Positions 10,401 through 32,463 of a DNA stretch of 64,000 nt are shown piece after piece; position 1 is the first letter of the stretch, and each line of letters opens with the position of its first letter. The stretch is from IMG/VR virus record IMGVR_UViG_3300009593_000010, positions 32,001 to 96,000 of that record. One strand, written 5' to 3'. The DNA comes from a virus. The translations under genes and the position numbers were made by a program. The notes under the pieces are model-generated. The model was not told the DNA's origin. It saw only the letters and a list, made by a program, of their open reading frames with translations, and did not search any database.

Positions 10401-10947
10401 AATTGATATGCAAATGACTTCTAATAATGATTGGGTCAGTCCAGTAATTGATATAGGTAATGGTGAGTCTCAAATGGGGGTATTAAACCCAACTCTTGGT
10501 GTCATTGGAATTATGAATAGAATTAATGATGTTGATTCGGCAAGTGATATTGCAGATAACTCAACATATGTCACATCTACCGAAGCAGATGGTGATAGTA
10601 ATAATTGTATTTACTTTACTAAGAAGATAGACATAGAGAATCCAGCATCAGAATTAAGAGTTCTATTTGAAGGATATAAACCTACTGCACCTCTTGGTGA
10701 TACTAAAATAGAAACATATTATAAGATACAAAAACAAGATGACAACACACCATTTGAAGAAAAGGGATGGACTCAATTCTCAACTACAAACGAACCAGAT
10801 GCAGATGCAACTAGATTTAGAACTTATGATTATACTGCATCGAACTTGGATGAGTTTGTAGGATTTGCAGTTAAGATTGTGATGAAATCTAAAGATACTG
10901 GGATAGTTCCTGCTATCAAAGCATTTAGAGGACTAGCACTTGCGTAA
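4405..10947 (+). CDS. Large virion structural protein, DUF4815/VrlC-like (2180 aa, GTG start)
   Basis: MAQKTDLNVSPYYDDF...QARELTQLQSILQNQIERFG start, LARRTYDESGDY, DPLAQSF...GYP motifs. Occupies the usual position after gp8. Confidence 0.8.
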   Translation: MAQKTDLNVSPYYDDFTESKNFHRVLFKPSVAIQARELTQLQSILQNQIERFGNHIFKEGSLVLGARTNFDNQYFAVKVTDTNPNGSGTTATESFRADALDKFYQGETSGVVAKVINTTAKTSDDPLTLHIKYQATGNSGSTYYNEFIDGEEIHRVTQNSNGTWTDASDNNEFKVFSQTGVSDVGSVQGSAASISEGVIYTRGNFVKVAKQTVILEKYSSTPSYKIGLDVGETLISSTEDDSLLDNASGSTNENAPGSDRLKISLTLAKKSLTATDSTNFIELMRVEAGVVTKRVEITEYSRIQDTLARRTYDESGDYMLQPFTVSFREHKNDLNNNGVYKSTDTPVGDTSKFIAVISAGKAYVRGYEVDRQTNTFLTLDKAREVNSVSNASSPFRIGNYVKCKFMYGTPDIGDEGTIAPFSTVAIYDTAKGSSASDTASGTQIGTARVRAIEYDSTGVYQVYLFDMQMYTNLTVASGAINRGQKYKGVTSGATGISDTNGTVTSVNLINVTGTFQTGETLRPIEDSTGGVAIGSSNGDVRTYNARRARRLHQSGGSGVNFAADLVLEDNFTLTGTGYVDISADADLVNGVASKYSSEIELGDQLLFPNGSTGIVDVVTSDTSISVATDLTADTNGKIIRQRAKVYKGDQTVAISGLPHDGIKTITVDSEVVRRQQLVTVASNRITMSAGSGESFDAYSADNYVASNESTGAAIDLSTATFVGAGTTTAYFTGGNVPANGVVVKITSTITRGSTTAATKTITKSAAATVDDANPTIYGVGYQHQDITLGVPDVYKVRAVYEGGNSITYGASDTVTTNPMPPSFVYTADSGNSVAISDAGTLITGSVSNARGFLIENDSGNCHVYYGKGSPQFSNNEAVTTEAGASGVITKLTHGSQDITERYILDDGQRDGYYGLGKITRKAGTPVPVGKLLVIFDYFSHGSGNYFTSASYPIEYTEIKNYVADRVDVAATMEPDGSFELGDSIDYRPSVADLWGTAPSNDITSGTPVDISDISSYPFSYASSSFGTGAHTCDVPKIGSNITVDYDHYLGRKDRLYLTSKGQFEIVKGESSLNPIAGNTIQNAIEIGTIDIPPYTTNASEVSIKLLSHRRYTMKDLEKMGKRLQNLETAVSLSMLETTAEGMQILDDDGFDKYKSGFVVDSFRGHSIADVLHPDYGIAIDQATQLARPDHHTDFFDIGMNSDKSSNVTKSGNAEIGYVVTLPFSEEVFLSADKASRELNVNPYDIATFIGRLDLSPDRDLWHDREALPNISTSSEGNFDAIVAGLPNGVGTVWNEWQQTWAGEPDITSTSSTVFDPIVTQTQRGFGGRQNRGWDEAVGNLWNRGNRGNWRGERARDWDVPAAIAGTASSTTTTVSRSVTPTREGRSGIQTSVVEDIVNTTNDRVVSVNAIPFMRSIPVTISGSLLKPNTSLNVFFDGIDVTSHCSPTPVTTSQGKLSTVFTIPNTDTLRFPTGVRTLKVTNASTVNGTSQTSAIANFMANGSLTTTQSETISTRNGRIVQTNVSGQRPGELVTTDESIEFTPGTPRVIWEDPLAQSFLASSEEGAFISSVEVYLSTKDSGGLPITASIREMSNGYPTQQILPSAEADMYPSDITTSSDGSVATKFTFPHPIYVRPFREYCIVLMSNSNAYNVWVGQMGDFDVKTKEPIDKQPFAGVLFKSQNSSTWTTEQMQDMKFKINRAKFTELTGKLTMENIQHDMNKKLTTNPIEIIGTGAAAKFKVYQRSHGMYDTDSNVTIAGVTGNRTNSILSLETPSVSGTGGIGSYTDVQLFSSGTSANYAAGANTGATCNVSLSGTGTVSAITVNNPGSAFATTDTLLIKQNEVGGTGATTFATIGVGTVGDTLGGISIAQINKTHTNIASYDLDSYEISTTITGTEGGIENIRGGGISTKQSGPTATKNLYFDLIHTLIPNTQLPNTGILPSVITTSTNTPQGITQSYTRETVSQTIALNDNNTLNQSGIVASSINETNEMSNVRSFQIDMQMTSNNDWVSPVIDIGNGESQMGVLNPTLGVIGIMNRINDVDSASDIADNSTYVTSTEADGDSNNCIYFTKKIDIENPASELRVLFEGYKPTAPLGDTKIETYYKIQKQDDNTPFEEKGWTQFSTTNEPDADATRFRTYDYTASNLDEFVGFAVKIVMKSKDTGIVPAIKAFRGLALA

Positions 10948-11143
10948 TAAAGTAGAAGGTAAAGATCACCTTATCAAAGATGAGGTTACTGGTGCAGTTA
11001 TAAATACTGATAGGAGTGGATATGTTGCTGTTAAAAGGAGAAGAGCAATATCCAGAGAACAGACAGTAGAAATACAAACTCTTAAAAGTGAAGTATTAGA
11101 ATTGAAAAGCATGGTAACAGAATTAATAGGGAATAGAAACTAA
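10940..11143 (+). CDS. Small conserved phage protein (67 aa)
   Basis: KVEGKDHLIKD..TGAVINTD motif and coiled-coil end; TTG start overlaps the upstream stop. Confidence 0.65.
   Translation: MRNKVEGKDHLIKDEVTGAVINTDRSGYVAVKRRRAISREQTVEIQTLKSEVLELKSMVTELIGNRN
10999..11006 (+). promoter_or_regulatory. T4-type late promoter TATAAATA (inside the small ORF)
   Basis: Exact consensus upstream of the 11145 fibre gene. Confidence 0.6.
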
Positions 11144-11144
11144 A

Positions 11145-13697
11145 ATGGCACTAACAGTAAGTAATAACCAAACACTAGAAGATTTACGAGTCAGTCATAA
11201 TGACCTCGTAGATGATGTTGGTGGTATTGGAAGTTTAAGAACAGGTCAAAAATCATCAGTTGTAGATGCTGTTAATTCAATTATTGATGAATACTTTTAT
11301 TTCCAAGACTATGAGTTTACTGCATCTGGTGGAAGTAACGAAACTTTCTCTGGTAATGATAGCAGTGGAAACCCATTAGTCTATTCAAAGTCAAGAGTAT
11401 TAGTATTTAAGAATGGTTCTCTATTACGAAACGGAACACAATACTCTGCAACAAACGGAACATCTGTTCAGATGGTTGGTTCTACTTCTTCTGGTGACAT
11501 TATTAGAATAACTTCTTTTACAGGGTCATATGAAGGAACTGCAGCTGCAACTCAACAAACAACTTATTGGTCTCCATCTGGTGGTTCGATTTATAACACG
11601 AACACTGATGGGATCGTCATAAACTCAAATGATACAAGTGTAGTTACAAGTCCAGCAAGTGGATATGGAATGCAACTTGAAGCAAGTGGTGACGATATTT
11701 ATGTTAACACTGGTGGAAGTAATAAAGTACAATTTACTGGTAATATAGATGTCGATGGTACATCTACATTAGATGGTGCTGTAACTGGTGGGGTGAGTGT
11801 CACTGCACCATTAATCGAAGCATCAACCTCAGTACAAACTCCTTTAATAGAATATAGTGATGGTGATGATGCAATCACAATTGCAGATGGTGGTGGTGTA
11901 ACCTTTGGTTCAACTATCAATGCAAGTGCAGCTCATGTATCGACTTCTACAATTCAAGGAACAACAATAACTGCAACAACAGGATTTACTGGAGATGTTA
12001 CTGGAACAGTTTCAGATATCTCTAATCATAATACAGGGGCCCTAACAGAAGGGTCAAATCTATATTATACAAATGCAAGAGCAGATGCAAGAATTGCTGC
12101 TGCAAGTATCGATGATGTATCTGATGTAACAATCACTTCACCAGCAACTGGACATCATTTAACATGGAGTGGTTCTGCATGGACTAACTCAGCTGCTGAA
12201 TCTTCTGATGGTATCACCGAAGGTTCATCAAACTTATTCCATACTACAGAAAGAGTACAGGATGTCGTTGGTGCATTTGTAAGTGGTACTGGATCAACAA
12301 GTGTCACTTATGATGATGCTGCTGGTACACTGGTTATATCTTCTGCTGGTAAAACACAAGAAGAAATAGAAGACATTGTAGGAGCAATGGTAACTGGAAA
12401 TACCGAAACTGGTATTGGAGTTACCTATGAAGACTCTACAGGAACTTTAGACTTCGTTCTTAACGACAACTATCTCCAAGATAAAGTTGGAGAGATGGTA
12501 GCAGGAAACACTGAAACGAATATGACAGTGACTTATGATACTTCCGATAATACCATTGACTTCTCAGTTGCAGATGCTACAACCTCTGCAAAGGGTGTTG
12601 CACAATTTAGTTCAGATAACTTTGGAGTATCATCTGGTGTAGTATCTATTAAAAACGATGGTGTCACATTAGGAACAGAAACAACAGGAAACTATGTTGC
12701 AACACTTAGTGGTGGAACTGGTATAACTGCTAGTGGTTCTAGTGAAGGTTCAACACCTACAATTTCGATTACTAATACTGCTGTTACAGCAGGTACATAT
12801 GGATCAGCAACGGCAATACCAGCAGTAACAGTTAATGCACAAGGTCAAATAACATCTGCAACTACACATGCCATATCTGGATATTCTGGATTTACTTGGG
12901 GAATAGTTGGTGGTTCTAGTGCTGGAGTAATAGGTAGTGGTGAAACAGTTAGACTTGATGCTGGAACAGGTATATCTTTAACATTAAGTGGTAACGATAT
13001 TGAAGTTGCTTCCTCACTCTCAGTAGGAGATGGTGGACTAACACAAAAGAATTTTACAACAGCATTAAATACTAAATTAACTGGAATAGAAGCTAGTGCT
13101 ACAGCAGACCAGACAAATGCAGAAATAAGAGCAGCTGTTGAAGCAGCTACTGATTCAAATGTATTTAATGACGCAGACCATACTAAATTAAATGGTATTG
13201 CGGCCGGTGCAACAACAAATACTGGTACAGTTACTTCTGTTTCTGCTTCAAATGGGTTGGTTATTAGTGGTACAGCATCTACTACACCAACAGTAAGTCT
13301 AAACACAGTTACAGGTGGTCAAATCCATAGTTTGGGTGTAAACACTGCAACCTCTGGTACTGCTGGTGAGATTCGTGCAACAAGTAATATTACTGCATAC
13401 TACTCAGATGAAAGATTAAAAGATTTTGATGGTACTATTGAAAATGCACTTGATAAAGTGTGTTCATTAGGTGGTTATTACTTCCATGAGAATGCCCTTG
13501 CAAAAGAACTTGGTTATGAAAATGAACGAAGACAGGTTGGTGTATCTGCACAGGAAATTCAAAAAGTTCTTCCAGAGGTCGTTACAACAGCACCAATCGA
13601 TGATCAATACCTAACTGTATGGTATGAAAAACTAATTCCACTCCTAATTGAGTCCATAAAAGAACTCAAATCTCAAGTAGACGAATTAAAAAAATAA
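11145..13697 (+). CDS. Tail fibre protein with C-terminal intramolecular chaperone (peptidase S74-like)
   Basis: G/S/T-rich body. C-terminus YSDERLKDFDGTIENALDKV...RQVGVSAQEIQKVLPEVV...WYEKLIPLLIESIKEL. Confidence 0.8.
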   Translation: MALTVSNNQTLEDLRVSHNDLVDDVGGIGSLRTGQKSSVVDAVNSIIDEYFYFQDYEFTASGGSNETFSGNDSSGNPLVYSKSRVLVFKNGSLLRNGTQYSATNGTSVQMVGSTSSGDIIRITSFTGSYEGTAAATQQTTYWSPSGGSIYNTNTDGIVINSNDTSVVTSPASGYGMQLEASGDDIYVNTGGSNKVQFTGNIDVDGTSTLDGAVTGGVSVTAPLIEASTSVQTPLIEYSDGDDAITIADGGGVTFGSTINASAAHVSTSTIQGTTITATTGFTGDVTGTVSDISNHNTGALTEGSNLYYTNARADARIAAASIDDVSDVTITSPATGHHLTWSGSAWTNSAAESSDGITEGSSNLFHTTERVQDVVGAFVSGTGSTSVTYDDAAGTLVISSAGKTQEEIEDIVGAMVTGNTETGIGVTYEDSTGTLDFVLNDNYLQDKVGEMVAGNTETNMTVTYDTSDNTIDFSVADATTSAKGVAQFSSDNFGVSSGVVSIKNDGVTLGTETTGNYVATLSGGTGITASGSSEGSTPTISITNTAVTAGTYGSATAIPAVTVNAQGQITSATTHAISGYSGFTWGIVGGSSAGVIGSGETVRLDAGTGISLTLSGNDIEVASSLSVGDGGLTQKNFTTALNTKLTGIEASATADQTNAEIRAAVEAATDSNVFNDADHTKLNGIAAGATTNTGTVTSVSASNGLVISGTASTTPTVSLNTVTGGQIHSLGVNTATSGTAGEIRATSNITAYYSDERLKDFDGTIENALDKVCSLGGYYFHENALAKELGYENERRQVGVSAQEIQKVLPEVVTTAPIDDQYLTVWYEKLIPLLIESIKELKSQVDELKK

Positions 13698-13722
13698 AAT
13701 AACGATTCAAAATCCTTAATAG

Positions 13723-13730
13723 TATAAATA
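13723..13730 (+). promoter_or_regulatory. T4-type late promoter TATAAATA
   Basis: Exact consensus, intergenic. Confidence 0.8.
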
Positions 13731-13765
13731 CTACTTGATAACAATAACATTAGGTAGTAATTACT

Positions 13766-14101
13766 ATGGCAGCGATAAGTAACCTTTATATCGATCAAGG
13801 AGCAGATTTTTCAATAGCTGTTACCATGACCGATGCAACAGGTAATGCATTAAATTTGACAGGTGCTTCTTTCTTAGGACAATTAAGAAAGACTCATGCA
13901 AGTTCTAGTTTAAAAGCAACTTTTGGAACGACACATGATAGTGCTGGTGGAACCCTTACTCTTACATTAACTGATACCATAACCGCTGCATTAGACAGTG
14001 GAAGGTATGTGTATGATGTGGTGATGACAGGTTCCGATGCATCTAAGACAAGAGTATTAGAGGGTCAAGCAGTAATTACACCAGGCGTGAGTAGAAGTTA
14101 A
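13766..14101 (+). CDS. Small virion structural/adaptor protein
   Basis: NLYIDQGADFS...LNLTG...GRYVYDVV...TRVLEGQAVITPGVS family pattern, common in marine T4-likes. Confidence 0.7.
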   Translation: MAAISNLYIDQGADFSIAVTMTDATGNALNLTGASFLGQLRKTHASSSLKATFGTTHDSAGGTLTLTLTDTITAALDSGRYVYDVVMTGSDASKTRVLEGQAVITPGVSRS

Positions 14102-14115
14102 TTTAAGGAGAAGAT

Positions 14116-14328
14116 ATGGCAGATATCAAGGTACAGATTGCAAATCCAACAGCCAGACAGGTTAAACAGATTTCAGTAGGTAAACTAGATGCATCAACCA
14201 CATCAATTAATGGACTTATGGATGTAGATACCACTACTGCAACTTTGCAGAATGGAACTACTCTAGTATATGATGCAAGTGCAAACAAGTTTGAAGCAAC
14301 CAACGCAATAGATGGTGGCACTTACTAA
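14116..14328 (+). CDS. Small fibre-associated protein
   Basis: SD AAGGAG. LMDVDTTT...NGTTLVYDASANKF...IDGGTY fibre-type motif. Confidence 0.65.
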   Translation: MADIKVQIANPTARQVKQISVGKLDASTTSINGLMDVDTTTATLQNGTTLVYDASANKFEATNAIDGGTY

Positions 14329-14356
14329 TTAGTTTATTTAATAGGAGAGGACAAAA

Positions 14357-15808
14357 ATGTCAACAGTAATTCAGATTAAGCGGTCTACAGGTTCCGCTGC
14401 CCCTACAACTTCTGAACTGGCTCAAGGTGAATTAGCATATTCAATGGATGCTTCCAATTCTGGAAGTGGTGCCATATTATATGTCGAATCTCAAGACAGT
14501 GGTGGTAGTGCGGTCATACAAAAACTTGGTGGAAAATATTATACAGAAATTCTCGATGGTTCAACACCTACCCCAGCAAATCTAATCGTAGGGAACGGAG
14601 CAACTGCTGGTGCAAGTATTCAACTAAGAGAAGACTCAGACAATGGTTCCAATTATACTGCATTAAAAGCTGCAGATACAATTGCAGCCAATGTAACATA
14701 CACATTACCAGCTGCGGATGGTTCTAGTGGTCAGTTCTTAAAAACTGATGGTTCTGGAGCATTATCATTTGGAACAGTAGTATCAACATTATCTCTTGCA
14801 GCGGACAGTGGTTCAAATGACTCACTATCTACTGGAGAGACAATTACATTCACAGGTGGTGAAGGTATCGATACAACAGTAGGTGATAATGTTATTACAG
14901 TTGCAGCTGAAGATGCTACATCAGCAAACAAAGGTGTTGCATCATTTAGTTCTTCACACTTTGATGTTTCCAGTGGTGCAGTCAGTCTTGCTGCTGCATT
15001 CATGGTCACAGAAGGTGAAGGAATTGGTTCTAACGATAACGACACAACTATTCCAACATCAGCTGCAGTAAAAGACTATGTAGATACAAATGTAACTGCA
15101 CAAGACTTAGATACTGCTGGTGATTCTGGAACAGGTGCAATAGATTTAGATTCTCAATCTCTAACAATTGCTGGTACGGCAAATGAGATTGAAACGGCTG
15201 CAAGTGGTCAAACAATAACAGTTGGATTACCATCTAATGTAACAGTAGGGAACAACCTTACAGTTACAGGTAACTTAACAGTTAATGGTACACAAACTAC
15301 AGTCAATAGTACAACAGTAACAGTAGATGACCCAATCTTTACAGTAGGTGGAGACAGTGCTCCAGGCTCTGATGACAACCTTGATAGAGGTATGGAATTC
15401 AGATGGCATAATGGAAGTGCTGCAAAATTAGGGTTCTTTGGTTATGATGACTCTACTGGTAAATTTACTTTTATTCCAGATGCAACAGACACAGGTGGTG
15501 TCATCACTGGTACTAAAGGTAACTTAGACATTGGTGGATTAGACCTTGCTGGTTCAATCACGAGTGTTGATGGTTCTGCACCAACTGCTGGTCAATTATT
15601 AATTGGTCATGGTGGTAATGGAGACATGGTTCTTGCAACTTTGTCTACTGGAGAGGGTGTAGATGTAACAAATGCAAATGGTAGTATTACCATTTCTGGT
15701 GAAGATGCAAGTACGAGCAATAAAGGTATTGCATCGTTTAACTCTAGTGAGTTTACTGTCTCATCTGGTGCAGTATCAATTACTGCGATAGATGGTGGTT
15801 CTTACTAA
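14357..15808 (+). CDS. Tail fibre protein with Mtd_N-like N-terminus
   Basis: MSTVIQIKRSTGSAAPTTSELAQGELAYS start; G/S/T-rich; ends IDGGSY. Confidence 0.75.
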   Translation: MSTVIQIKRSTGSAAPTTSELAQGELAYSMDASNSGSGAILYVESQDSGGSAVIQKLGGKYYTEILDGSTPTPANLIVGNGATAGASIQLREDSDNGSNYTALKAADTIAANVTYTLPAADGSSGQFLKTDGSGALSFGTVVSTLSLAADSGSNDSLSTGETITFTGGEGIDTTVGDNVITVAAEDATSANKGVASFSSSHFDVSSGAVSLAAAFMVTEGEGIGSNDNDTTIPTSAAVKDYVDTNVTAQDLDTAGDSGTGAIDLDSQSLTIAGTANEIETAASGQTITVGLPSNVTVGNNLTVTGNLTVNGTQTTVNSTTVTVDDPIFTVGGDSAPGSDDNLDRGMEFRWHNGSAAKLGFFGYDDSTGKFTFIPDATDTGGVITGTKGNLDIGGLDLAGSITSVDGSAPTAGQLLIGHGGNGDMVLATLSTGEGVDVTNANGSITISGEDASTSNKGIASFNSSEFTVSSGAVSITAIDGGSY

Positions 15809-15823
15809 GGGTAGGATAAAATT

Positions 15824-16237
15824 ATGGCATATTATGATGGAGAAGTCAATTACAATGTCGATGAGAATTCAGTTGTAATAGATAGGGACTTCACTCTACA
15901 GATTCCGCCAGAAGTGTTGGATGATCTCTATATGGGGACGACAGCAACATGGTGGGTAGGAAAAACAGGTGATGAGGTTAGAGTAGAAATAGTAAATACT
16001 AGTGGATACTCTCAAATCTCATCAAATGAATTCCGAAAGGAACCGAAGCTTGCACATAAAAGAGCTGAGGGGACTTATAATGTCGGCAAAGAAACTTATA
16101 TCCATAGGGGTGCAAGTTTAAGAGTTGGCAAGGATATTATTAATGCATTAAGTATTAATAGTCCAGAAACAAACAATGTCAGATGGACAGTAGATACTAC
16201 CAACTGGCGTTGTGTACTAACAACAGTCGTTAAATAA
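15824..16237 (+). CDS. Hypothetical protein (possible tandem AbrB/swapped-hairpin-like)
   Basis: 137-aa ORF with SD. Composition differs from the flanking fibre genes. Confidence 0.55.
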   Translation: MAYYDGEVNYNVDENSVVIDRDFTLQIPPEVLDDLYMGTTATWWVGKTGDEVRVEIVNTSGYSQISSNEFRKEPKLAHKRAEGTYNVGKETYIHRGASLRVGKDIINALSINSPETNNVRWTVDTTNWRCVLTTVVK

Positions 16238-16286
16238 CGATAAAATTTTGGGTATATACCCAATGGATAAAGTGAGTTAATAAAAT

Positions 16287-17603
16287 ATGACACAAACAGT
16301 TCAACTCAGAAGGAGTTCGACTGATGGTGCTAAGCCTACAACTGCTCAGTTAGAACTGGGTGAAATGGCAATCAATACTTACGATGGTAAAGTTTACATT
16401 AAGAAAAGTGTAAGCGGAGTCGAGAGTATCGTTCAAGTTGGAGAAGCATCAACCAGTCAATTTACTTCATATCAACATTGCAAGTTCTCAAACGCAGGTG
16501 GGACACTTTCTGCTGGTCAGACATCTTTTAGTGGAACAGATGATAATTCTGCTTCATTAGGATACACTGCTGGAAACTTAATTGTTTTCTTAAATGGTGT
16601 TGCACTAGACCCAGATGATTTTACTGCAACAAATGGAACAACAATAGTATTAGACAATGCAGTTGCTGGTTCTGATACATTAGAAACAGTTTCAATGGGT
16701 GGGGATAGTGGTTCTGCATTAACCTCAGTTGCAATATATGAATACACTGCAACAGCAAACCAAACTGCATTTACAGGTGCAGATGATAACTCAAGAACTT
16801 TATCTTATGACTCTGGAGAAGAATTAGTATTCTTAAATGGGGTTCTATTAGACCCTAGAACGAGTCAAGATTATACAAGAACATCAAGTTCTACCATAAC
16901 ACTTAATGCTGGTGCTCAAGTAAATGACACTCTAGTCATTAAGACTTATGGTGGTTCAAACCCATTTAACAGATTTACATTTGATGTCACTGCAGCTTCA
17001 ACAACTAGTATTACTGGTACAGATGCAAACTCAGTAACATTATCCTTCCATCCAGACTATTCAGAAGTTTTTGTGAATGGTATATTAATGCAAAAGGGTC
17101 AATGGACTGGGGGAGATGGAAAGACCATCTCATTTACTGATGCATTAGTAGACCCAAACTACATCATCGATGTAATTGATTACCAAATTACTGCACCTCA
17201 AGTTAGGTTGTTTAAAGATGAAGCACCATTCTTGGGTGGACATTTAAATACGAATGGTAAAGAAATTGTGGGTTCTTCTGGACAGAACATAACATTTACT
17301 CCAGCATCATCTCAATATGTAGATATAAAAGATGGGCCGTTGAGAATGGACATACTATCGAGTGATCCGTCTACTGTGACAGATCGTGCATCGTTGTATT
17401 CAAAGGAAATTTCTAGTATGGCAGAATTGTTTGTTCAAGATGAAGCGGGTAATGTCACTCAAATTTCTCCTCACCAAGATGGAGAGTGGGTGTATTATTC
17501 TGAAAATATAAAAACAGGAAAAAGATTTAAAGTGAATATGGAGAGAATGATTAGAAAACTTCAAGATATCACTGGAGAAAGATTCATCGAAATAGATGAA
17601 TAA
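16287..17603 (+). CDS. Virion structural/fibre protein with Mtd_N-like N-terminus
   Basis: MTQTVQLRRSSTDGAKPTTAQLELGEMAINTYDGKVYIKK start; three VFLNGV-type repeats. Confidence 0.75.
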   Translation: MTQTVQLRRSSTDGAKPTTAQLELGEMAINTYDGKVYIKKSVSGVESIVQVGEASTSQFTSYQHCKFSNAGGTLSAGQTSFSGTDDNSASLGYTAGNLIVFLNGVALDPDDFTATNGTTIVLDNAVAGSDTLETVSMGGDSGSALTSVAIYEYTATANQTAFTGADDNSRTLSYDSGEELVFLNGVLLDPRTSQDYTRTSSSTITLNAGAQVNDTLVIKTYGGSNPFNRFTFDVTAASTTSITGTDANSVTLSFHPDYSEVFVNGILMQKGQWTGGDGKTISFTDALVDPNYIIDVIDYQITAPQVRLFKDEAPFLGGHLNTNGKEIVGSSGQNITFTPASSQYVDIKDGPLRMDILSSDPSTVTDRASLYSKEISSMAELFVQDEAGNVTQISPHQDGEWVYYSENIKTGKRFKVNMERMIRKLQDITGERFIEIDE

Positions 17604-17611
17604 CATAAATA
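17604..17611 (+). promoter_or_regulatory. Late promoter variant CATAAATA
   Basis: One mismatch to TATAAATA, immediately upstream of the 17640 gene. Confidence 0.55.
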
Positions 17612-17639
17612 CTAATATTAATTAAGGGGAATATTAAAA

Positions 17640-20600
17640 ATGGCAACAAAAGCAAGATATCTTGCAGACTTATTAAATGCATCTGGGGAGTTAGACTCTA
17701 CTGGTGCAGTTGAGAGTATTCAAGATAACATATCAACATTATTTGCAGCTGGATCACATACAGGTATAGCATTTACCTATGATGATTCAAATGCAACATT
17801 CAGTGCAGCGGTCACACAAGATGCTCAGTCTGCTGGTTTCTATCACAAAGTAACAGTAACAGTTTCTGGCGGAAACTATTTAATGGACGGAACTGCGAAC
17901 GCATCCGTTGTATTATCCCCAAGTGTAACATATAGATTCGATCTATCAGATTCTAGTTGTGCGAATCATCCCCTTAGATTCTCAACAACTTCTGATGGAA
18001 CCCACAACTCTGGTGCAGAAATTTCAGCAGGTTATACAACATACTCTAAGACTGGAACACCAGGCTCAGCAGGTGCATACACACAAGTTTGTTTTGAACA
18101 AGATCAAACAAACCCACTATACTACTATTGTTCTGCACATAGTGGAATGGGTGGAACTGCATTGTTGGGTGTTCATCCAAATACAGACACAATAACAGAA
18201 GGTTCTACAAACCAATATCATACCTCAGAAAGAGTACAAGATATCACTGGTGCCCAGTTGGCAACCAATGGTTCTCATACAGGTATCACAGCAACATATG
18301 ATGATGCTGGTGATGGTGCAATTGACCTTGCACTAGTAACCGAAAATGTAGAAGATATCGTTGGGGCAATGTTCTCATCAAATACCGAAAGCGGTATTAG
18401 TGTCACCTATGAAGATGGTGACGGAACGATTGACCTAGATGTTAATGACCCTACCATTTCCTTAACTGGAGATGTAACTGGTTCTGCAACAATGACCAAT
18501 TTAGGAAACACATCTATTGCTGCCACAATTGCAGCCAATAGTGTTGCAATGGGAACAGACACAACAGGAAATTATGTTGCAACAGTTGCTGGAACAACAA
18601 ACGAGATAACTGTCTCTGGTTCTGGTTCAGAAACTGCAGCCGTAACAGTTTCCCTACCAGATGATGTCACTATAGGTAATGACTTAACAGTAACAGGTGA
18701 GATGGGTTCTGCAACAATTGCTACATCTGGTAATGCAGTAATTGGTGGAAACTTAACAGTTAGTGGTACAACTACTACAGTTTCTTCCTCAACAGTTGCT
18801 ATTACAGATAACAACATGAAGGTTGCAAAAGATAACTCTGCCAACACAACCGACTTTGGTGTCTATGGTGTTTATAACGATGGTTCAACAAGATATGCTG
18901 GTATTAACTGGGATGGAAGTGAATCAGATAAGTTTAGACTCTATCATGGAACAACAACCGAACCAACTACAGTAGTAGACCCTACTGCAACTGGTTGGAC
19001 AAAAGGAACATTAATTGCAGACCTAGAAGGTAATTCTTCAACTGCATCTGCACTTGCAACTGCAAGAACGATAGCAGTAAGTGGGGATGTTGTAGGTTCT
19101 GCATCATTTGATGGTTCTGGTAATATAGATTTATCTACAGTTATTCAAGCAAACTCAGTTGCATTAGGAACTGATACTACTGGAAACTACATGACAGATT
19201 TATCTGCTGGTGAAGGTATAGATATAACTCACACTGCAGCGGAAGGTTCAACTGCAACAATTACAGCAGAGATTGCAACAGACTCAAATAAAGGTGTTGC
19301 CCAATTTAACACAACAGACTTTACAGTAACTTCTGGTGAAGTTGCTATAAACGCAGAAAGAATTCAAGATACTGCTGGAGCAATGTTCACTGGTAATACT
19401 GAGACAGGTATTACAGCAACATATCAAGATGGAGATGGAACTGTAGATTTAGTTGTTAGTGGAACACTTGCAACAATAGTTTCCGATGGTACTGAAGCAG
19501 TACAAGACATTGCTGGTGCAATGTTTACATCTAATACAGAAACAGGTATAACGGCCACATATGATGACAGTGATGGAACGATTGATCTAGTTGTTAGTGG
19601 AACACTTGCAACAATAGTGTCAGACGGAACCGAAGCAGTACAAGATATTGCTGGTGCTCAACTTGCAACTAATGGTTCACACACTGGTATTACTGCAACA
19701 TATGATGATTCAAATGATGGTGCAATTGATCTTGCATTAGTATCAGAAAATGTACAAGATATTGTAGGAGCAATGTTCAGTTCCAATACTGAAACTGGAA
19801 TTGCAGCCACCTATGAAGATGGTGATGGAACTATAGACCTTGTAGTTAGTGGTGCTGCAGCAACAATCGTATCAGACTTCACAGAAGCAGTTCAAGATGT
19901 AGTTGGTGCAATGGTATCATCCAACACAGAAAGTGGTATAGGAGTGACATATGAGGATGGAGATGGTACTTTAGACTTTAATGTATCAGACCCAACATTA
20001 TCTTACACAGGAGATGTAACTGGTTCTGGAACAATGACTGATTTAGGTAATACTAGTATTGCATTAACAATAGCTGCAACATCTGTAGAAAACAGTATGT
20101 TAGCAGGTTCGATTGCAAACAGTAAACTTTCAAACTCAAGTATAACAGTTTCAGATGGTTCTAACTCAACTGCAACTTCATTGGGTGGAACAATAACATT
20201 TGCTGGTACTTCAAACGAAGTAGATGTTGCAGAAAGTTCTGGAACAATTACATATGGACTACCATCTGATGTAACAATATCAAACGACTTAACAGTTAGT
20301 GGAGACTTAACAGTTACAGGTTCAACAACACAAACTGGTTCAATAGTTTCAGATTCAAACTTTACAGGTTTAACAGATGCAAACTCTGGAAATTCAACAG
20401 ACTTTGGTTTCTATGGTAAGTATGTAGAATCATCCACTACAAAATATGGTGGTATATTCTACGATGCATCAACAGATAATACATTTAGATTATTCTCAGA
20501 TACACAAACAGTACCTTCAACTACAGTAAATACAGGTGCAACAGGTTATACTGCTGCTAACTTAGTAGTTGGTACATTAACTGGTAATGTTACAGGTAAT

Positions 20601-21584
20601 GTGACAGGTTCTTTAACTGGTAATGCAACAACAGCGACAACACTTGCAACTTCAAGAAATATAAGTGGTGTAGCATTTGATGGTTCTGCAAATATTACTT
20701 TAGACACAGACGACATTGGTGAAGGTTCAAGTAACCTCTATCATACATCAGAAAGAGTTGCAGATGTTGTGGGTGCGATGGTTAGTTCAAATACCGAGAG
20801 CGGTATTTCTGTAACCTATGACGATTCAGATAATACATTAGACTTTAATGTTGCTGATCCAACAATTGCATTGACAGGAGATGTAACTGGTTCTGCAACA
20901 ATGACTGACTTAGGTAATGTTAGTATTTCCACTTCTCAAGCAGCTGATTCAGTTGATCTAGGTACTCATACAACAGGTAACTATGTTGACAATGTTACTG
21001 GTGGAACTGGTGTTACTGTAACAGGTAGTGCTGGTGAAGGATGGGAACCAGCAATTAGTATTGGACAGGCAGTTGCAACTTCAAGTAATGTGACTTTTGC
21101 AGATGTTGCTGCAACAGGAAATGTAACAATTACTGGTAATTTAACTGTTAATGGTTCTCAGACAACTGTTAACTCAAGTACCCTTTCAGTAACCGACCTA
21201 AATATAATCGTAGGAAAGGATGCATCTACATTGGCTGCAACTGATGGTGCTGGATTAACATTTGGTGCTCATGGTTCTGCACCTACATTTACTTGGGATA
21301 ATGGAAACGCTAGACTAAGTGCAAACAAACAGATTTATTCTTCTGGTGGATTTGTAGGTAATGTAACAGGTAATGCAAGTGGAACCGCTGCTACAGTAAC
21401 AGGTGCAGCTCAAACTGCAATTACAAGTGTAGGAACATTGACTGGACTAGCAGTAAGTGGTGCAGCTACAACCAGTTATACAACGATTGGTTCTAGTGCA
21501 AAAGCATTTAGAAATATCTACATGCATTCATCTGCACCGAGTGGGGGAGATGGGGCCGTAGGTGATCTCTGGATAACATATTAA
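17640..21584 (+). CDS. Long tail fibre-like protein (1314 aa) with an N-proximal cupredoxin-like domain and tandem ~44-aa repeats
   Basis: HPLRF...YYYCSAHSGMGG. Repeated VQDIVGAMxSSNTESGISVTYEDGDGTIDL units. Confidence 0.75.
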   Translation: MATKARYLADLLNASGELDSTGAVESIQDNISTLFAAGSHTGIAFTYDDSNATFSAAVTQDAQSAGFYHKVTVTVSGGNYLMDGTANASVVLSPSVTYRFDLSDSSCANHPLRFSTTSDGTHNSGAEISAGYTTYSKTGTPGSAGAYTQVCFEQDQTNPLYYYCSAHSGMGGTALLGVHPNTDTITEGSTNQYHTSERVQDITGAQLATNGSHTGITATYDDAGDGAIDLALVTENVEDIVGAMFSSNTESGISVTYEDGDGTIDLDVNDPTISLTGDVTGSATMTNLGNTSIAATIAANSVAMGTDTTGNYVATVAGTTNEITVSGSGSETAAVTVSLPDDVTIGNDLTVTGEMGSATIATSGNAVIGGNLTVSGTTTTVSSSTVAITDNNMKVAKDNSANTTDFGVYGVYNDGSTRYAGINWDGSESDKFRLYHGTTTEPTTVVDPTATGWTKGTLIADLEGNSSTASALATARTIAVSGDVVGSASFDGSGNIDLSTVIQANSVALGTDTTGNYMTDLSAGEGIDITHTAAEGSTATITAEIATDSNKGVAQFNTTDFTVTSGEVAINAERIQDTAGAMFTGNTETGITATYQDGDGTVDLVVSGTLATIVSDGTEAVQDIAGAMFTSNTETGITATYDDSDGTIDLVVSGTLATIVSDGTEAVQDIAGAQLATNGSHTGITATYDDSNDGAIDLALVSENVQDIVGAMFSSNTETGIAATYEDGDGTIDLVVSGAAATIVSDFTEAVQDVVGAMVSSNTESGIGVTYEDGDGTLDFNVSDPTLSYTGDVTGSGTMTDLGNTSIALTIAATSVENSMLAGSIANSKLSNSSITVSDGSNSTATSLGGTITFAGTSNEVDVAESSGTITYGLPSDVTISNDLTVSGDLTVTGSTTQTGSIVSDSNFTGLTDANSGNSTDFGFYGKYVESSTTKYGGIFYDASTDNTFRLFSDTQTVPSTTVNTGATGYTAANLVVGTLTGNVTGNVTGSLTGNATTATTLATSRNISGVAFDGSANITLDTDDIGEGSSNLYHTSERVADVVGAMVSSNTESGISVTYDDSDNTLDFNVADPTIALTGDVTGSATMTDLGNVSISTSQAADSVDLGTHTTGNYVDNVTGGTGVTVTGSAGEGWEPAISIGQAVATSSNVTFADVAATGNVTITGNLTVNGSQTTVNSSTLSVTDLNIIVGKDASTLAATDGAGLTFGAHGSAPTFTWDNGNARLSANKQIYSSGGFVGNVTGNASGTAATVTGAAQTAITSVGTLTGLAVSGAATTSYTTIGSSAKAFRNIYMHSSAPSGGDGAVGDLWITY

Positions 21585-21615
21585 TTTATATAATGTATAG
21601 GAGTGGAGTGAGGAT

Positions 21616-23190
21616 ATGACTTCAAAGATAAAAACACCAAGTGGATGGGTCGATACCTATGGTATGCGTGTCAAGACGCCTGGTGGTTGGAATAAAGTAG
21701 TTGATGTAAAAAGAAAGACACCTACAGGATGGGTGTTTCAAACTGGTACTATACAGGTTACTCAACCTTATCAACAAACATATCAGCAAGGATATCAACA
21801 ACCATTTCAACAAGGATATCAACAACCTTACCAAGCACAAAATAGTAGACCTTCTAATTATGAACAAACAATTAATAGACCTTCAAGTTATGAGGTAACT
21901 ATTAATAGACCTTCTAGTTATGAGGTGACAATTAATAGACCTTCTAGTTATGAGGTGACAATTAATAGACCTAGTTCTTACGAACAAACTATACCTAGGC
22001 CTGGTTCTTATGAACAAACTATACCTAGACCTGCTAACTACGAACAAACTATACCTAGGCCTGGTTCTTATGAACAAACTATACCTAGACCCACAACCTA
22101 TCAGACACAAAATTATCGTCCACCTACTTATGAACAGACGATACCTAGACCCACAACCTATCAGACTCAAGGCACTAGACCAACATTCTATCAGACTCAA
22201 GGAACAAACTATCGTCCAGCATTCTATCAGACTCAAGGTCAGACCTTCTATCAGACTCAAGGTCAAACATTTTATCAGTCACAGGGTACTAACTATAGAC
22301 CAGCATTCTATCAAACACAGGGTACTAACTATAGACCAGCATTCTATCAGACTCAAGGACAAACATTCTACCAAACACAGGGTACTAACTATCGTCCTAC
22401 AGGTTATCAACAACAGGCTGGAAACTTCTTCTTCCAAATTGGTAAGGGTCAACCAGTCTATGTTCCGTTTTTACAAGTACCAGCAACAAGGCCAAGTATT
22501 TCTGGATTCTATCAAATACAGAATGCACAATTTTATCAGATTCAAAATTCAAGACCTACTGTTCAAGGGTTCTATCAGATTCAAAATGCAAGACCTACTG
22601 TTCAAGGGTTCTATCAAATTCAGAATGCTCAATTCTATCAGATTCAGAATGCTCAATTCTATCAGATTCAAAATTCAAGACCTACTGTACAGGGATTCTA
22701 CCAGATTCAAAATGCAAGACCTACATTCTATCAAATACAGAATTCAAGGCCTGCAAACTATGAAGTAACTATCAGTAGACCTCAGTATTATCAAACTCAG
22801 AATTCAAGGCCTGCAAACTATGAAGTAACTATTAACAGACCTACATCTTATGAGGTAACTATTAACAGACCTACATCTTATGAGGTCACAATTAACAGAC
22901 CGACTTCATATGAGGTAACTATTAATAGACCTACAAACTATGAACAAACAATTAATAGACCTACAAACTACGAACAAACAATTAATAGACCTACTAATTA
23001 TGAACAAACAATTAACAGACCGACTTCATATGAGGTAACTATTAACAGACCTACAACTTATCAGACACCTGCTACAAGACCTGCCACAAGACCTAGTACG
23101 AGACCAGCAACAAGACCTAGTACGAGACCTTCTACTAGACCAGTTGCAACATGGGATGGAGATATCAACAAACCTTGGCCTGCAGATTAG
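21616..23190 (+). CDS. Mirror-symmetric repeat protein (524 aa), probable virion fibre/whisker
   Basis: SD GGAG/GAGG upstream. Uninterrupted ORF of 4-, 8-, 10- and 12/13-aa repeats; three KTPxGW motifs at the N-terminus. Confidence 0.85.
   Translation: MTSKIKTPSGWVDTYGMRVKTPGGWNKVVDVKRKTPTGWVFQTGTIQVTQPYQQTYQQGYQQPFQQGYQQPYQAQNSRPSNYEQTINRPSSYEVTINRPSSYEVTINRPSSYEVTINRPSSYEQTIPRPGSYEQTIPRPANYEQTIPRPGSYEQTIPRPTTYQTQNYRPPTYEQTIPRPTTYQTQGTRPTFYQTQGTNYRPAFYQTQGQTFYQTQGQTFYQSQGTNYRPAFYQTQGTNYRPAFYQTQGQTFYQTQGTNYRPTGYQQQAGNFFFQIGKGQPVYVPFLQVPATRPSISGFYQIQNAQFYQIQNSRPTVQGFYQIQNARPTVQGFYQIQNAQFYQIQNAQFYQIQNSRPTVQGFYQIQNARPTFYQIQNSRPANYEVTISRPQYYQTQNSRPANYEVTINRPTSYEVTINRPTSYEVTINRPTSYEVTINRPTNYEQTINRPTNYEQTINRPTNYEQTINRPTSYEVTINRPTTYQTPATRPATRPSTRPATRPSTRPSTRPVATWDGDINKPWPAD
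21769..22401 (+). repeat. N-arm coding tandem repeats (YQQx, RPxxYE[QV]TI, FYQTQG units)
   Basis: Direct repeats with 12-, 24-, 30- and 36-nt periods, e.g. tatgaggtaactattaatagacct. Confidence 0.9.
22507..23139 (+). repeat. C-arm coding tandem repeats (FYQIQN, RPTxYE[VQ]TIN, RPxT units)
   Basis: Direct repeats with 24-, 39-, 30- and 12-nt periods. Confidence 0.9.
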
Positions 23191-23247: not shown

Positions 23248-23871
23248 ATGTTATTAGTATACGATAACGACAACCAATTACATTTAATCAACAGTACAGG
23301 ATTACGATGGAATTATGAGCGTGCAGACAAACCAGACTTAGGTTTCGATTACGATTACCTATTTTATAACCCAACCGAAGATGAAACTTTTGAAATTCAA
23401 GGAAATGTATTTCCATTGAGTCAAGAGCAAATTGATAGTATTGAAGAATATATTAATCTTGCAGAACCACCAGACATCTGTAATCTACAAAATCAATTTA
23501 CAGATGATTTAAAACATCATATTTTTGAACAGTTTGAAAATGGATTCTTTGGTGACTTGGGATATAATGGATGGGGTGATCTTCTTATCACTGCGAGAGA
23601 GGGCTCTAACGACCCATATCGTGCAGAGGCAAGACGATGTTTAGAGTTTAGGGACTTTGTTATGCAATCTTATTATAGATTAAGAGAAGAGATTCTTGCA
23701 TCTGAGGATGCAGACTTACTGCCATTTGAGGATTACATAGGTAAACTACCTATAGTTCCACAGTCAGATTGGTTCTCAAGAGGTGATAGACCTATCGCAG
23801 AACGACTTCAACTACTTGCCGATAGTGATACTTTAGATATCAATGGTGGGGAAGATAGTAGGAGATTCTAA
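23248..23871 (+). CDS. Putative tail-fibre assembly/chaperone-like protein
   Basis: C-half GY..WGDLL.....S.DPYRAEARRCLEFRDFV...Y....EI......PFEDYIGKLP resembles phage fibre-associated small proteins. Follows the repeat gene directly. Confidence 0.5.
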   Translation: MLLVYDNDNQLHLINSTGLRWNYERADKPDLGFDYDYLFYNPTEDETFEIQGNVFPLSQEQIDSIEEYINLAEPPDICNLQNQFTDDLKHHIFEQFENGFFGDLGYNGWGDLLITAREGSNDPYRAEARRCLEFRDFVMQSYYRLREEILASEDADLLPFEDYIGKLPIVPQSDWFSRGDRPIAERLQLLADSDTLDINGGEDSRRF

Positions 23872-23874
23872 ATA

Positions 23875-24789
23875 ATGGATATCCATTCATGGATGGACGA
23901 CCCTTTAGACATCGTATATCTTGACAAATCAAAACCATTAGACGAGTTACCCCACAAACAAGCTTGGGTAATCGACAATTTTCTAACTCCAGCAGAGTTC
24001 GCTGCGTGGACGGAGTGGAGAATAGTTCATTCAGACTACAAACTTTCAAATAGAGTTATGCGTGAAGGGGAGATGCAACATCTCTACTTTGGTCAGTCTT
24101 GTTATTTTGCTTATGACCAATTCTTTGAGAGACCAGATGAGGGGTTTCATGAGAGTGTCGAACAAGGAACTAAGGGACAACTTGCAAAGAGACATTGGAG
24201 AAGGATTCAACCAGACTGGAAAAAAAGAGTAATCTCAAGGCCAAATGTTGGACATTGCCACCCAATGTTAGATACTTTTGGTTGGAAACTACAACAACAG
24301 TTTAGATTTGATTGGGTAAGATTCCAGTATTGTGGATTCAATGGTCAGATAACAGGACAAGATGGAACAGTCCATGAGGATACACACAAAGATGGTAGGA
24401 GTGAAAACAACCTTACATTCTTATTCTATGATCAAGAACACTGGGAAGATGACTGGGGTGGAGATTTAATATTTTTTAATTCCGAGTTTCATAATCCAGA
24501 ATTGGGTATAGGAATACCAGAAAACGAGAAGGATTATGAGATAGGACGGATAAAATATAAACCTAATCGTCTTATAGTAGTAAATGGTATGATATCTCAT
24601 AGACATCCAGGCCCTGCAATACCATACGATAAACCAAACTTTCCCTTTAGAACAAGTATGGTCATGAGGGGTGATGAAATTAAACTATGGAAAAGGGGTC
24701 TATATAAACATATAGAATATGATAATGGTAAGTGGGAAACCCTACCAACCCTAAAGGAAGAGTATAAACTATGGACAGAAGAACAGTAA
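23875..24789 (+). CDS. 2OG-Fe(II) oxygenase
   Basis: VHEDT (HxD), LTFLFY..W..DWGGDL.F, YKPNRLIVVNGMISHR, R-x-S. Confidence 0.85.
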   Translation: MDIHSWMDDPLDIVYLDKSKPLDELPHKQAWVIDNFLTPAEFAAWTEWRIVHSDYKLSNRVMREGEMQHLYFGQSCYFAYDQFFERPDEGFHESVEQGTKGQLAKRHWRRIQPDWKKRVISRPNVGHCHPMLDTFGWKLQQQFRFDWVRFQYCGFNGQITGQDGTVHEDTHKDGRSENNLTFLFYDQEHWEDDWGGDLIFFNSEFHNPELGIGIPENEKDYEIGRIKYKPNRLIVVNGMISHRHPGPAIPYDKPNFPFRTSMVMRGDEIKLWKRGLYKHIEYDNGKWETLPTLKEEYKLWTEEQ

Positions 24790-30866: not shown

Positions 30867-32463
30867 AAGAAACGAAGGATACTTGGGGAACATTAATGTC
30901 AAGAGGGCGGGTGTTCAACAGGAGTGGTCAGAAGAAGAGGTTAAGGAATATGTTAAATGTTCCCAAGAACCTGCTTACTTCATCCAGAATTATGTTCAAA
31001 TCATATCACTAGATGAGGGGTTAGTACCCTTTGCTCTTTACAACTACCAAGAAGAATTAATAAGTCACTTTGATGAGAACAGGTTTTCTATCTGTTTAGC
31101 ATGTCGTCAAAGTGGAAAATCAATAACAGTATGTGCATACCTAGTTTGGTATCTCATGTTCCATCCAGAACAAACAGTAGCAATCCTTGCAAACAAGGGT
31201 GCAACTGCAAGAGAAATGTTAGCTCGTATAACGACAATGTTAGAACACATACCTTTTTTCCTACAGCCTGGGACTAAAGTATTAAATAAAGGGAGTATAG
31301 AGTTTGAAAACGATTCGAGAATTATTGCCAGTGCTACTTCTACCTCTTCAATTAGGGGCCTTTCTGTCAATCTTTTGTATCTTGACGAGTTTGCATTTGT
31401 CGAAAACGCAGAAGTGTTTTACACAGGAACCTATCCAGTAATTACATCTGGTTCTAAATCTAAGGTTATTGTTACCTCAACTGCAAATGGTGTAGGTAAT
31501 ATGTTCCATAAACTTTGGGAAGGTGCAACAACCGACTCAAATGAGTTTAAAAATTTCCAAGTAAACTGGTATGATGTACCAGGCCGTGACACGAAGTGGA
31601 AGAAACAGACCATTGCAAATACATCAGAGTTGCAGTTTGAACAAGAGTTTGGTAATAGTTTCTTAGGAACTGGTAGAACTTTAATTGCAGCTGACTGTCT
31701 GTTGGGTCTCACATCACTAAACCCAGAGGAGATGTATGGACAAGTTAAGGTCTACAAACGACCAGAAGAGAACCATTCCTATGTAATGACAGTCGATGTT
31801 GCAGAAGGTAAGGGGTTAGACTACTCTACCTTTAGTGTATTCGATGTCACTGATAGTGAAAGATTTGAACAGGTATGTGTTATGAGAGACAATACACTCT
31901 CTCCTATGTTACTTCCAGACATATGTTCTAAGTTTGGTAAGTTATATAATACTGCATTAATCATTGTAGAGAATAATAATCAAGGTTCTATGGTATGTAA
32001 TGAACTACACTATAACTTAGAATATGAAAATATGTTTATGACCAACTCCACAAAAGCAGATGGGTTGGGATTGAGGATGACCAAAAAGACAAAAGCAATA
32101 GGTTGTGCAAGGTTAAAAGAGATCATGGAAGAGGGTAAACTACATGTTCCAGACAGTATAACTATACAAGAGATGACAACCTTTGTATCTAAAGGGGTAT
32201 CTTGGGAAGCAGATGGTGGGAATCATGATGACATGGTAATGAATTGTGTCCTTTTTTCGTGGTTCGTTTCTACTCCATTGTTTACAGATATGACCGAAGT
32301 ACAATTAAAACAGATGTTGTTTGCAGAACAACAGAGGAATATACAAGATTCTATAGTTCCAATTGGGATTATAAATAATAACGAGGAAGAACAATTCGTA
32401 GATGCCGATGGGGATTTATGGACTGTAGATTCTCGTTGGAAAAATAATGTTAAGATATATTAA
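30856..32463 (+). CDS. gp17: Terminase large subunit gp17
   Basis: ACRQSGKS Walker A, LYLDEFAF Walker B, VDVAEG, HDDMVM. Confidence 0.95.
   Translation: MTDRRNEGYLGNINVKRAGVQQEWSEEEVKEYVKCSQEPAYFIQNYVQIISLDEGLVPFALYNYQEELISHFDENRFSICLACRQSGKSITVCAYLVWYLMFHPEQTVAILANKGATAREMLARITTMLEHIPFFLQPGTKVLNKGSIEFENDSRIIASATSTSSIRGLSVNLLYLDEFAFVENAEVFYTGTYPVITSGSKSKVIVTSTANGVGNMFHKLWEGATTDSNEFKNFQVNWYDVPGRDTKWKKQTIANTSELQFEQEFGNSFLGTGRTLIAADCLLGLTSLNPEEMYGQVKVYKRPEENHSYVMTVDVAEGKGLDYSTFSVFDVTDSERFEQVCVMRDNTLSPMLLPDICSKFGKLYNTALIIVENNNQGSMVCNELHYNLEYENMFMTNSTKADGLGLRMTKKTKAIGCARLKEIMEEGKLHVPDSITIQEMTTFVSKGVSWEADGGNHDDMVMNCVLFSWFVSTPLFTDMTEVQLKQMLFAEQQRNIQDSIVPIGIINNNEEEQFVDADGDLWTVDSRWKNNVKIY

Follow-up and report, generated by a model that had tools for sequence, protein, structure and literature searches.

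The window analysed here, a stretch of 64,000 nucleotides (nt) covering positions 32,001 to 96,000 of the IMG/VR virus record IMGVR_UViG_3300009593_000010, carries at positions 21616 to 23190 a gene for a protein of 524 amino acids (aa) with two long arms of short, proline-punctuated repeat units. Around a central turn, the units of one arm are matched by those of the other in mirrored order, each facing a unit of complementary type. The pairing code, its register, the co-variation of the arms in relatives, and matched gains and losses of units show that the arms contact each other antiparallel, in a single fixed register, and that evolution keeps them matched, which supports the fold-back, in-register arrangement that had been proposed from the sequence of the window. 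Taken as a whole, the protein is best explained as a self-pairing fold-back fibre, or part of a fibre, of a marine T4-like phage, a reading to which a probability of about 0.65 is given.

Mirror order of the units in the 524-aa protein

The protein is rich in Gln, Thr, Pro, Tyr, and Arg and contains neither His nor Cys. Its units were obtained by splitting the sequence at every RP. The parts of the gene are the following.

21616..23190, plus strand: whole gene, 524 aa and stop codon, for the putative fold-back repeat fibre protein; open reading frame with a good Shine-Dalgarno sequence (GGAG...GAGG) ahead of the ATG
21616..21768, plus strand: N-terminal base domain, aa 1-51, with three KTPxGW repeats and three of the five Trp residues, recognized from invariant alignment columns
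21769..21846, plus strand: outer zone of the N-arm, aa 52-77, five [YF]QQx tetramers and YQAQNS, from the unit parse
21847..22176, plus strand: decamer zone of the N-arm, aa 78-187, eleven RPxx[Y]E[V/Q]TIx or YQTQx units, from the unit parse and the mirrored complement
22177..22392, plus strand: inner zone of the N-arm, aa 188-259, seven FYQTQG-type units (one of them FYQSQG) with linkers TNYRPA (long) or QT (short)
22393..22488, plus strand: turn segment, aa 260-291, with the aromatic tip NFFFQIGKGQPVYVPF and the apex GKG at the centre of the pairing register
22489..22746, plus strand: inner zone of the C-arm, aa 292-377, eight FYQIQN units, with linker lengths that mirror those of the N-arm
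22747..23076, plus strand: decamer zone of the C-arm, aa 378-487, eleven units that complement aa 78-187 in reverse order
23077..23136, plus strand: outer zone of the C-arm, aa 488-507, five RP[AS]T tetramers
23137..23187, plus strand: C-terminal tail, aa 508-524, with the motif RPVxTWDGDxxKPW and the other two Trp residues

The sequence-only reading of this DNA had described a mirror at several scales, and all of it was recovered upon parsing. From the centre outward, the inner linkers of both arms run long, short, long, long, short, short, long, medium. The decamers, read from the outside in, run Q, V, V, V, Q, Q, Q, Q, YQTQ, Q in the N-arm and V, Q, Q, Q, V, V, V, V, YQTQ, V in the C-arm, where Q and V stand for units with YEQT and YEVT. 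Given the make-up of the C-arm, a fully complementary order is one of 840 for the decamers and one of 35 for the inner linkers. The limits of the arms (aa 52-262 and 298-508, 211 aa each) were confirmed, as was the turn at IGKG (nt 22438-22449): the geometric centre of the pairing falls on G276-K277-G278. The numbers of two paired residues add up to 558 in the decamer zone and to approximately 555 near the tip. In this register, all 16 mirrored units are paired correctly, and in any slipped register at most 5 of 15 are.

The earlier statement that the repeats are direct ones in the DNA also holds. No inverted repeat of at least 14 nt is present within the gene, by which an origin of the mirror at the DNA level is ruled out. 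The repeat units differ at many synonymous sites, and the longest exact repeat in the gene measures 53 nt.

The possibility that the symmetry is an assembly artefact was addressed with contigs from three DNA sequencing runs of three studies, which tile the gene in pieces, the turn included, without a mismatch. These contigs break at the repeats and none spans the arrays, so that they confirm the pieces and not the full order of the units; one of the three runs may be the sample behind the assembly of the window. An RNA run covered only positions 21400-21767 and does not show transcription of the gene.

Co-variation of the arms in relatives

Relatives were gathered by pattern scans of viral and metagenome contigs, which yielded 72 loci and 45 distinct full-length proteins of 226-604 aa, all of them marine. 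Each protein was split at RP, its turn was located, and the k-th unit counted from the outside in one arm was compared with the k-th unit of the other. In 38 of the 44 relatives with a placeable turn, the two arms have equal numbers of units, 15 to 21 per arm. One map is obeyed by 656 of the 735 mirrored unit pairs (89%): V units (YEVTI) pair with Q units (YEQTI), YQTQG-type with YQIQN-type units, the 8-mer RPxxYQT[SPA] with the 8-mer RPxQ[VL]QNx, and the 12-mer xYNYQIQNH with the 12-mer YQT[QT]GHxT, while YQTQN units face each other, as do copies of a His-rich module of 51 residues. The V/Q decamer pairs comprise 338 V.Q, 26 Q.Q, and 6 V.V pairs. The mutual information (MI) of the mirrored labels amounts to 2.90 bits, compared to 0.41 ± 0.024 bits in 2000 shuffles; it is 0.51 bits when the arms are read in direct order and approximately 1.0 bits at a slip of one unit in either direction. 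Unit lengths are equal in 99% of the mirrored pairs and in about 60% of the slipped ones.

The 38 equal-armed proteins show 36 different unit orders, each of which is mirror-complementary. The arms thus co-vary, as had been expected for arms in which a change on one side needs a matching change on the other: nearest neighbours of equal length differ at 171 mirrored positions in both arms and at 26 unit positions in one arm. Between L007 and L008, several rungs are swapped between the arms. Such both-arm changes are to the protein what compensatory changes are to an RNA stem, and Q.Q behaves as a tolerated intermediate. V units are encoded with GAG GTx and Q units with GAA CAA; unit types are therefore exchanged by copying of whole units and not by point mutation.

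A second code, absent from the sequence-only reading, was found in the linkers. As all units share one N-to-C polarity, arms apposed antiparallel must be related by local two-fold axes, one through the V/Q site at unit position 7 and one through the proline of the linker. This places position 10 against position 4 of the mirrored unit and sets the RPx of N-arm unit k beside that of C-arm unit k-1. The residue following RP in N-arm unit k does co-vary with that of C-arm unit k-1 (MI 1.23 bits, against 0.1-0.2 bits at other offsets and 0.07 bits upon shuffling), T being matched by A, S, G, or N, and P by Q. In the 524-aa protein, 14 of 15 rungs obey this linker code. The last residue of a unit also co-varies with x4 of the mirrored unit (MI approximately 0.66 bits). 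The offset of one unit in the linker code fits the antiparallel geometry and fixes the register to the level of the residue. The internal consistency of two independent codes is strong evidence against misassembly.

The conservation pattern in the family alignment differs between the ends and the tip. The N-terminal base domain (aa 1-51) is the most conserved part of the family, and in the C-terminal tail the residues W, D, G, D, K, P, and W are invariant. The two ends hold all five Trp residues and most of the invariant columns, and variation is greatest at the tip, whose type in the 524-aa protein is unique among the 45 relatives.

For the outer tetramers, the sequence-only reading had proposed a code of its own, P-A, G-S, P-A, G-S, T-S. 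These pairs are present in the 524-aa protein and the code fails across the 38 relatives, in which P faces S 66 times and A 56 times. The mirrored MI of the tetramers (0.11) is lower than that in direct order (0.23), which points to positional conservation rather than to pairing. All 38 relatives tested have the five tetramers, and only the count of five versus five is conserved.

A divergent subfamily (L015:1225-2592, L017:3001-4230, and L076:2-1189) has retained the three KTPxGW repeats, the WDG tail, and the gene order, with arms of another composition: RPATGTYPAQ, RPATYPAQ, and RPASGP units in the N-arm and NAPYPFQQPY, NVAFQQNY, and GYQQNY units in the C-arm. In L015, unit lengths run 8, 8, 6, 8, 8, 10, 6, 10, 6, 10, 6, 10, 6 in both arms. 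L076, which is 89% identical to L015, lacks one module of 10+6 residues in each arm, a matched change of the kind that the sequence-only reading had called for. The pairing in these arms is of the same kind as that of YQQx with RPxT in the outer zone, extended over the whole arms.

The 51-residue modules occur in both arms of L002, L003, L004, L018, L020, and L021. They are free of Pro and rich in HxH (FHQHQN, HFHH), and each is internally self-complementary (TQG, TQH, TQH, IQN, HQN, IQN). By analogy with the needle of T4 gp37, they may be metal sites.

Exceptions to the equality of the arms are six proteins with unequal arms, next to one 226-aa form without a turn. Four of the six (L046, L047, L060, and L052) miss a stretch inside the repeats of one arm, the other arm being intact, and are 95-99% identical over a long shared stretch to a full-length relative. 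They look like slipped deletions, either assembly collapses or rare variants, and not like freely unequal lineages. For L043 and L035 there was no close full-length relative among the comparisons made. L064 is also among the metagenome contigs with one arm shortened inside the repeats, and such contigs are a warning for automated annotation of this family of fibre proteins.

A proposed fold-back rod and its alternatives

In the proposed structure, the chain would leave a small Trp-rich base domain, run out over some 210 residues as short Pro-punctuated units, turn at the short aromatic tip, and come back alongside the first arm, antiparallel to it and in register, which would bring the C-terminal WDGD...KPW tail next to the N-terminal domain. 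Each outgoing unit would lie against a returning unit of equal length and complementary type. The rungs would be YEVTI/YEQTI, YQTQG/YQIQN, linkers of RPT with RPA, RPS, RPG, or RPN, and linkers of RPP with RPQ, and the code would sit at or beside the local two-fold axes at unit position 7 and the linker proline. The irregular order of unit types and lengths would act as a bar code that fits in a single register and blocks slippage of an otherwise repetitive zipper of 200 residues. Unit types would be replaced by copying between repeats, with selection retaining only those orders in which the arms match and Q.Q being tolerated.

Pairing within one chain is favoured because it reaches the short Gly/Pro apex, because the tip is the most variable part, and because the Trp residues and the invariant ends are brought together. 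The variable tip would bind the host. The residue preceding a proline prefers extended conformations, and Pro-rich units of four or six residues cannot form hairpins of a strand plus a turn. The Arg before Pro, the PRP linkers, and the 4- and 6-residue Pro-rich units therefore suggest that the chains are extended (beta or polyproline-like), in which case the rod would be approximately 60-70 nm long. Tyr, V/Q, and Ile would be on one side of such a ribbon and Glu and Thr on the other. As a lone ribbon would expose its greasy face, burial in an oligomer is likely, probably in a trimer by analogy with other phage fibres.

The 524-aa protein was modelled over its full length with AlphaFold2 (AF2), using an alignment of 38 sequences. 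The best parts of the model, with a predicted local distance difference test (pLDDT) score of 60-65, are five 7-residue strands at aa 141-187 and five at aa 381-427; in the N-terminal domain, strands are drawn at aa 4-7, 10-13, 29-35, and 38-44 (pLDDT approximately 60-65). No strands were obtained when the N-arm was folded alone (aa 78-187, pLDDT 51). In the AF2 model the strands thus depend on the other arm, by which the model would lend weak support to cross-arm pairing.

Several points weigh against the fold-back rod. The full-length AF2 model is of low confidence (pLDDT 45), and its two sets of strands are symmetric about a residue sum of 568, one unit off the co-variation register of 558. 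In the ESM Atlas, the 524-aa protein falls in a cluster of 65 viral hypothetical proteins, and its model has a pLDDT of 0.54. Related sequences share ancestry, and the raw counts of pairs and changes (735 and 171 against 26) overstate the number of independent events. Val and Gln are equal in volume, which leaves the rule that V.Q is good, Q.Q tolerated, and V.V avoided without a simple explanation in terms of packing. The long linkers in the C-arm of the 524-aa protein are one residue longer than those in the N-arm (12/13, 20/21, 28/29), for which bulges would be needed, and the 51-residue modules of relatives are odd in length, which breaks strict strand parity. A place for the protein in the virion is a prediction from gene context. 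Finally, the co-variation would look alike whether the arms pair in one plane or pack as two layers face to face, and whether the partners belong to one chain or to different chains.

Packing in two layers would take the form of a cross-beta ladder, in which each unit is a short strand across the axis, each arm is a beta-meander sheet, and the two sheets lie face to face in a rod of approximately 10 nm. The mirrored order, the 7-to-7 rule, and the linker offset of one unit are equally expected from it. It would also suit the amphipathic nature of the units (Y, V/Q, and I versus E and T), the many cores that end in the turn formers G or N, and the 7-residue strands with 3-residue breaks that are drawn by AF2. 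These strands, however, vanish in the N-arm alone, so that AF2 does not pair neighbouring units of one arm with each other. The linkers xRPx and PRPx, often with T or P after the proline, are poor candidates for tight hairpin loops according to established preferences, and the tetramer zones and the 6-residue two-proline units of L015 and L017 cannot make a strand plus a turn. V.V, the pair that is avoided, is the one that a buried core would favour, and a ladder, unlike a ribbon, would not call for unit lengths that match almost perfectly. We consider the ladder unlikely.

Pairing between chains, which is somewhat less probable still, would have two or more chains in head-to-tail order, the N-arm of each lying on the C-arm of its neighbour; either a symmetric rod or a filament with open ends would result, and the "turn" segments would be in the middle. 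The co-variation itself leaves room for this, since it reveals antiparallel contact of an N-arm with a C-arm and not that they belong to the same chain. However, the pairing reaches to within about 10 residues of a Gly/Pro-rich apex that can be as short as 16-29 residues, and a head-to-tail rod leaves the hypervariable, non-repeat centre without a role. The conserved Trp-rich termini would be found at either end of the rod, a poor fit to polar attachment to a virion, and none of the full-length loci parsed showed a split form.

That there is no structure at all, the arms being low-complexity, disordered, or misassembled repeats with an accidental symmetry, would agree with short-read assemblies that break in the gene, with several contigs that have collapsed arms, with the lack of a contig piece spanning the arrays, with sub-threshold or compositional Pfam matches, and with unsure structure predictors, but it is highly improbable, as misassembly or random expansion would destroy a mirror-complementary order and not create it, this order is present in 38 sequences from many samples with 36 patterns, the contigs of the three DNA studies are identical at every base of the gene that they cover, and the frame is open and the ends conserved in all relatives.

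Beyond the fold-back rod, the arms could be looked upon as a protein base-pairing system, in which a small alphabet of units and linkers with fixed complementarity, its 8-, 10-, and 12-mers accepting partners of their own length only, is written along the arms as a bar code for one register, freely rewritten by copying of units, and re-matched by selection as in RNA stems, and in which an oxygenase encoded next to the gene might modify the RP repeats. This extension is tentative and falls slightly short of even odds.

The locus and systems of comparable design

The record from which the window was taken is a linear IMG/VR contig of 129.6 kilobases of an uncultured virus. A Pfam scan showed that the window encodes the T4-type portal, sheath, terminase, scaffold, and major capsid protein. 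The last shares 65-67% identity with its counterparts in the OM43 phage Melnitz and the Pelagibacter phage HTVC008M. The genome is that of a marine T4-like phage, and the gene sits in its tail-fibre block: large fibre-like genes at positions 4405-21584 directly precede it. This run of genes matches the "host recognition cluster" of pelagimyophages (PMC7029224). The neighbouring genes are the following.

17640..21584, plus strand: upstream neighbour, 1314-aa fibre-like repeat protein, which precedes the gene at every locus with an upstream flank
23248..24789, plus strand: downstream neighbours, a 207-aa protein without a family and a 304-aa 2OG-Fe(II) oxygenase-like protein, in conserved gene order

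The gene order around the fibre gene is conserved in approximately 50 loci (L002-L072). The genes for the 207- and 304-aa proteins follow wherever the downstream flank reaches, also in the divergent subfamily, with one or two loci with short flanks being unclear. The 304-aa protein gave matches to PF13640 and PF13661 below threshold in a Pfam scan, and no PDB relative of it was found by sequence search; it might be a prolyl hydroxylase that acts on the RP repeats of the fibre protein. The 207-aa protein is a possible assembly factor. The upstream 1314-aa protein contains about eight copies of a module of approximately 35 residues (…QDI[AV]GAMF[ST]SNTE[ST]GI…TY[DE]DGDGT[IL]DL…) as well as fibre-like stretches rich in Gly, Thr, and Ser, and is conserved 5' of the gene in relatives with approximately 39-84% identity, depending on the locus. 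Two long frames overlap the gene, one of 127 aa at 21883-22266 (minus strand) and one of 252 aa at 22010-22768 (plus strand, other frame); they are by-products of the repeats and not genes.

No meaningful family was found for the 524-aa protein in Pfam, NCBIfam, PHROGs, or PDB sequences. In Pfam, Extensin_1 scored 49.7 bits (cut-off 105), Keratin_B2_2 19.3 (cut-off 27), and Keratin_B2 (PF01500) 30.1 (cut-off 28.7) with no matched stretch that passes on its own; these scores are read as compositional matches to Pro-rich repeats. PHROG 34266, of unknown function, was matched with an E value of 8e-10, again without a stretch passing alone, over 20 residues of a 61-residue profile that correspond to one repeat unit. 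A profile of the 38 relatives had no match at E ≤ 1 among all PDB sequences, and Foldseek and VIA-align with the low-confidence AF2 model returned nothing significant, with only weak small-barrel matches to aa 1-54. Among cultured phages (INPHARED), no relative was found by DNA, whole protein, or N-terminal domain. Whole-protein searches of 5.8 and 1.8 billion proteins returned only N-terminal fragments, unrelated low-complexity repeats, and the chimeric protein P0001. P0001 (374 aa, on a 1691-nt ENA contig) has the N-terminal domain and the tetramers in its first 70 residues or so and is peptidase M16-like in the rest, most likely as a consequence of a misjoin at the repeats. The repeat architecture explains why such genes assemble poorly from short reads. 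No description of a protein with mirror-complementary repeat arms was found in the literature.

Phage fibres decide which cells can be attacked, and those of the abundant marine T4-like phages akin to SAR11 and OM43 phages are almost wholly uncharacterised. Long arms that set their own antiparallel register by a complementary repeat code would be a new building principle among proteins. The codes provide a testable, residue-by-residue contact map for a protein that structure predictors cannot fold, and the family offers a natural experiment on the avoidance of slippage in repetitive fibres. If true, the base-pairing reading would supply a natural, evolvable set of rules for programming long, thin, self-registering protein rods.

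The nearest known counterpart is the needle of T4 gp37, in which the chain runs to the tip and back in a six-stranded antiparallel trimer with a variable receptor-binding tip (Bartual et al. 2010, as summarised in PMC9659904 and PMC6957217) that measures approximately 150 by 25 Å (PMC3004832). The two have in common the fold-back idea, deduced here from co-variation and register, the setting of a phage fibre, and a variable tip; the HxH-rich 51-residue modules, in some relatives only, resemble the His-bound iron sites of the needle. In contrast to gp37, the 524-aa protein has no His, and sequence and profile similarity to the C-terminal 215 residues of gp37 are lacking. In the fold searches, which bear on likeness to PDB 2XGF-like chains, only aa 1-54 of the low-confidence model were matched, and weakly. 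Its arms of 211 residues are several times longer than the needle of approximately 15 nm, and its fold-back spans the whole protein instead of the C-terminal tip. A repeat code with co-variation has not been reported for gp37. Judged by sequence, the 524-aa protein is not a member of the gp37 needle family.

The arms of SMC and Rad50 proteins are long alpha-helical coiled-coil rods in which one chain folds back at a hinge or hook and the ends join in one head. Like the arms of the proposed fold-back fibre, they have to keep matched lengths in evolution. They differ in being alpha-helical with heptad packing, where the fibre has Pro-punctuated beta or extended repeats, and they share neither sequence nor function nor biology with it.

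RNA and DNA stem-loops are comparable in logic only. The "letters" of the protein, unlike theirs, are units of 4-12 residues and single linker residues. The shared logic consists of opposed arms, a rule of complementarity, a "wobble" in the form of Q.Q, compensatory double changes, and a loop at the apex, and the compensatory evolution in the arms is as clear as that in RNA stems.

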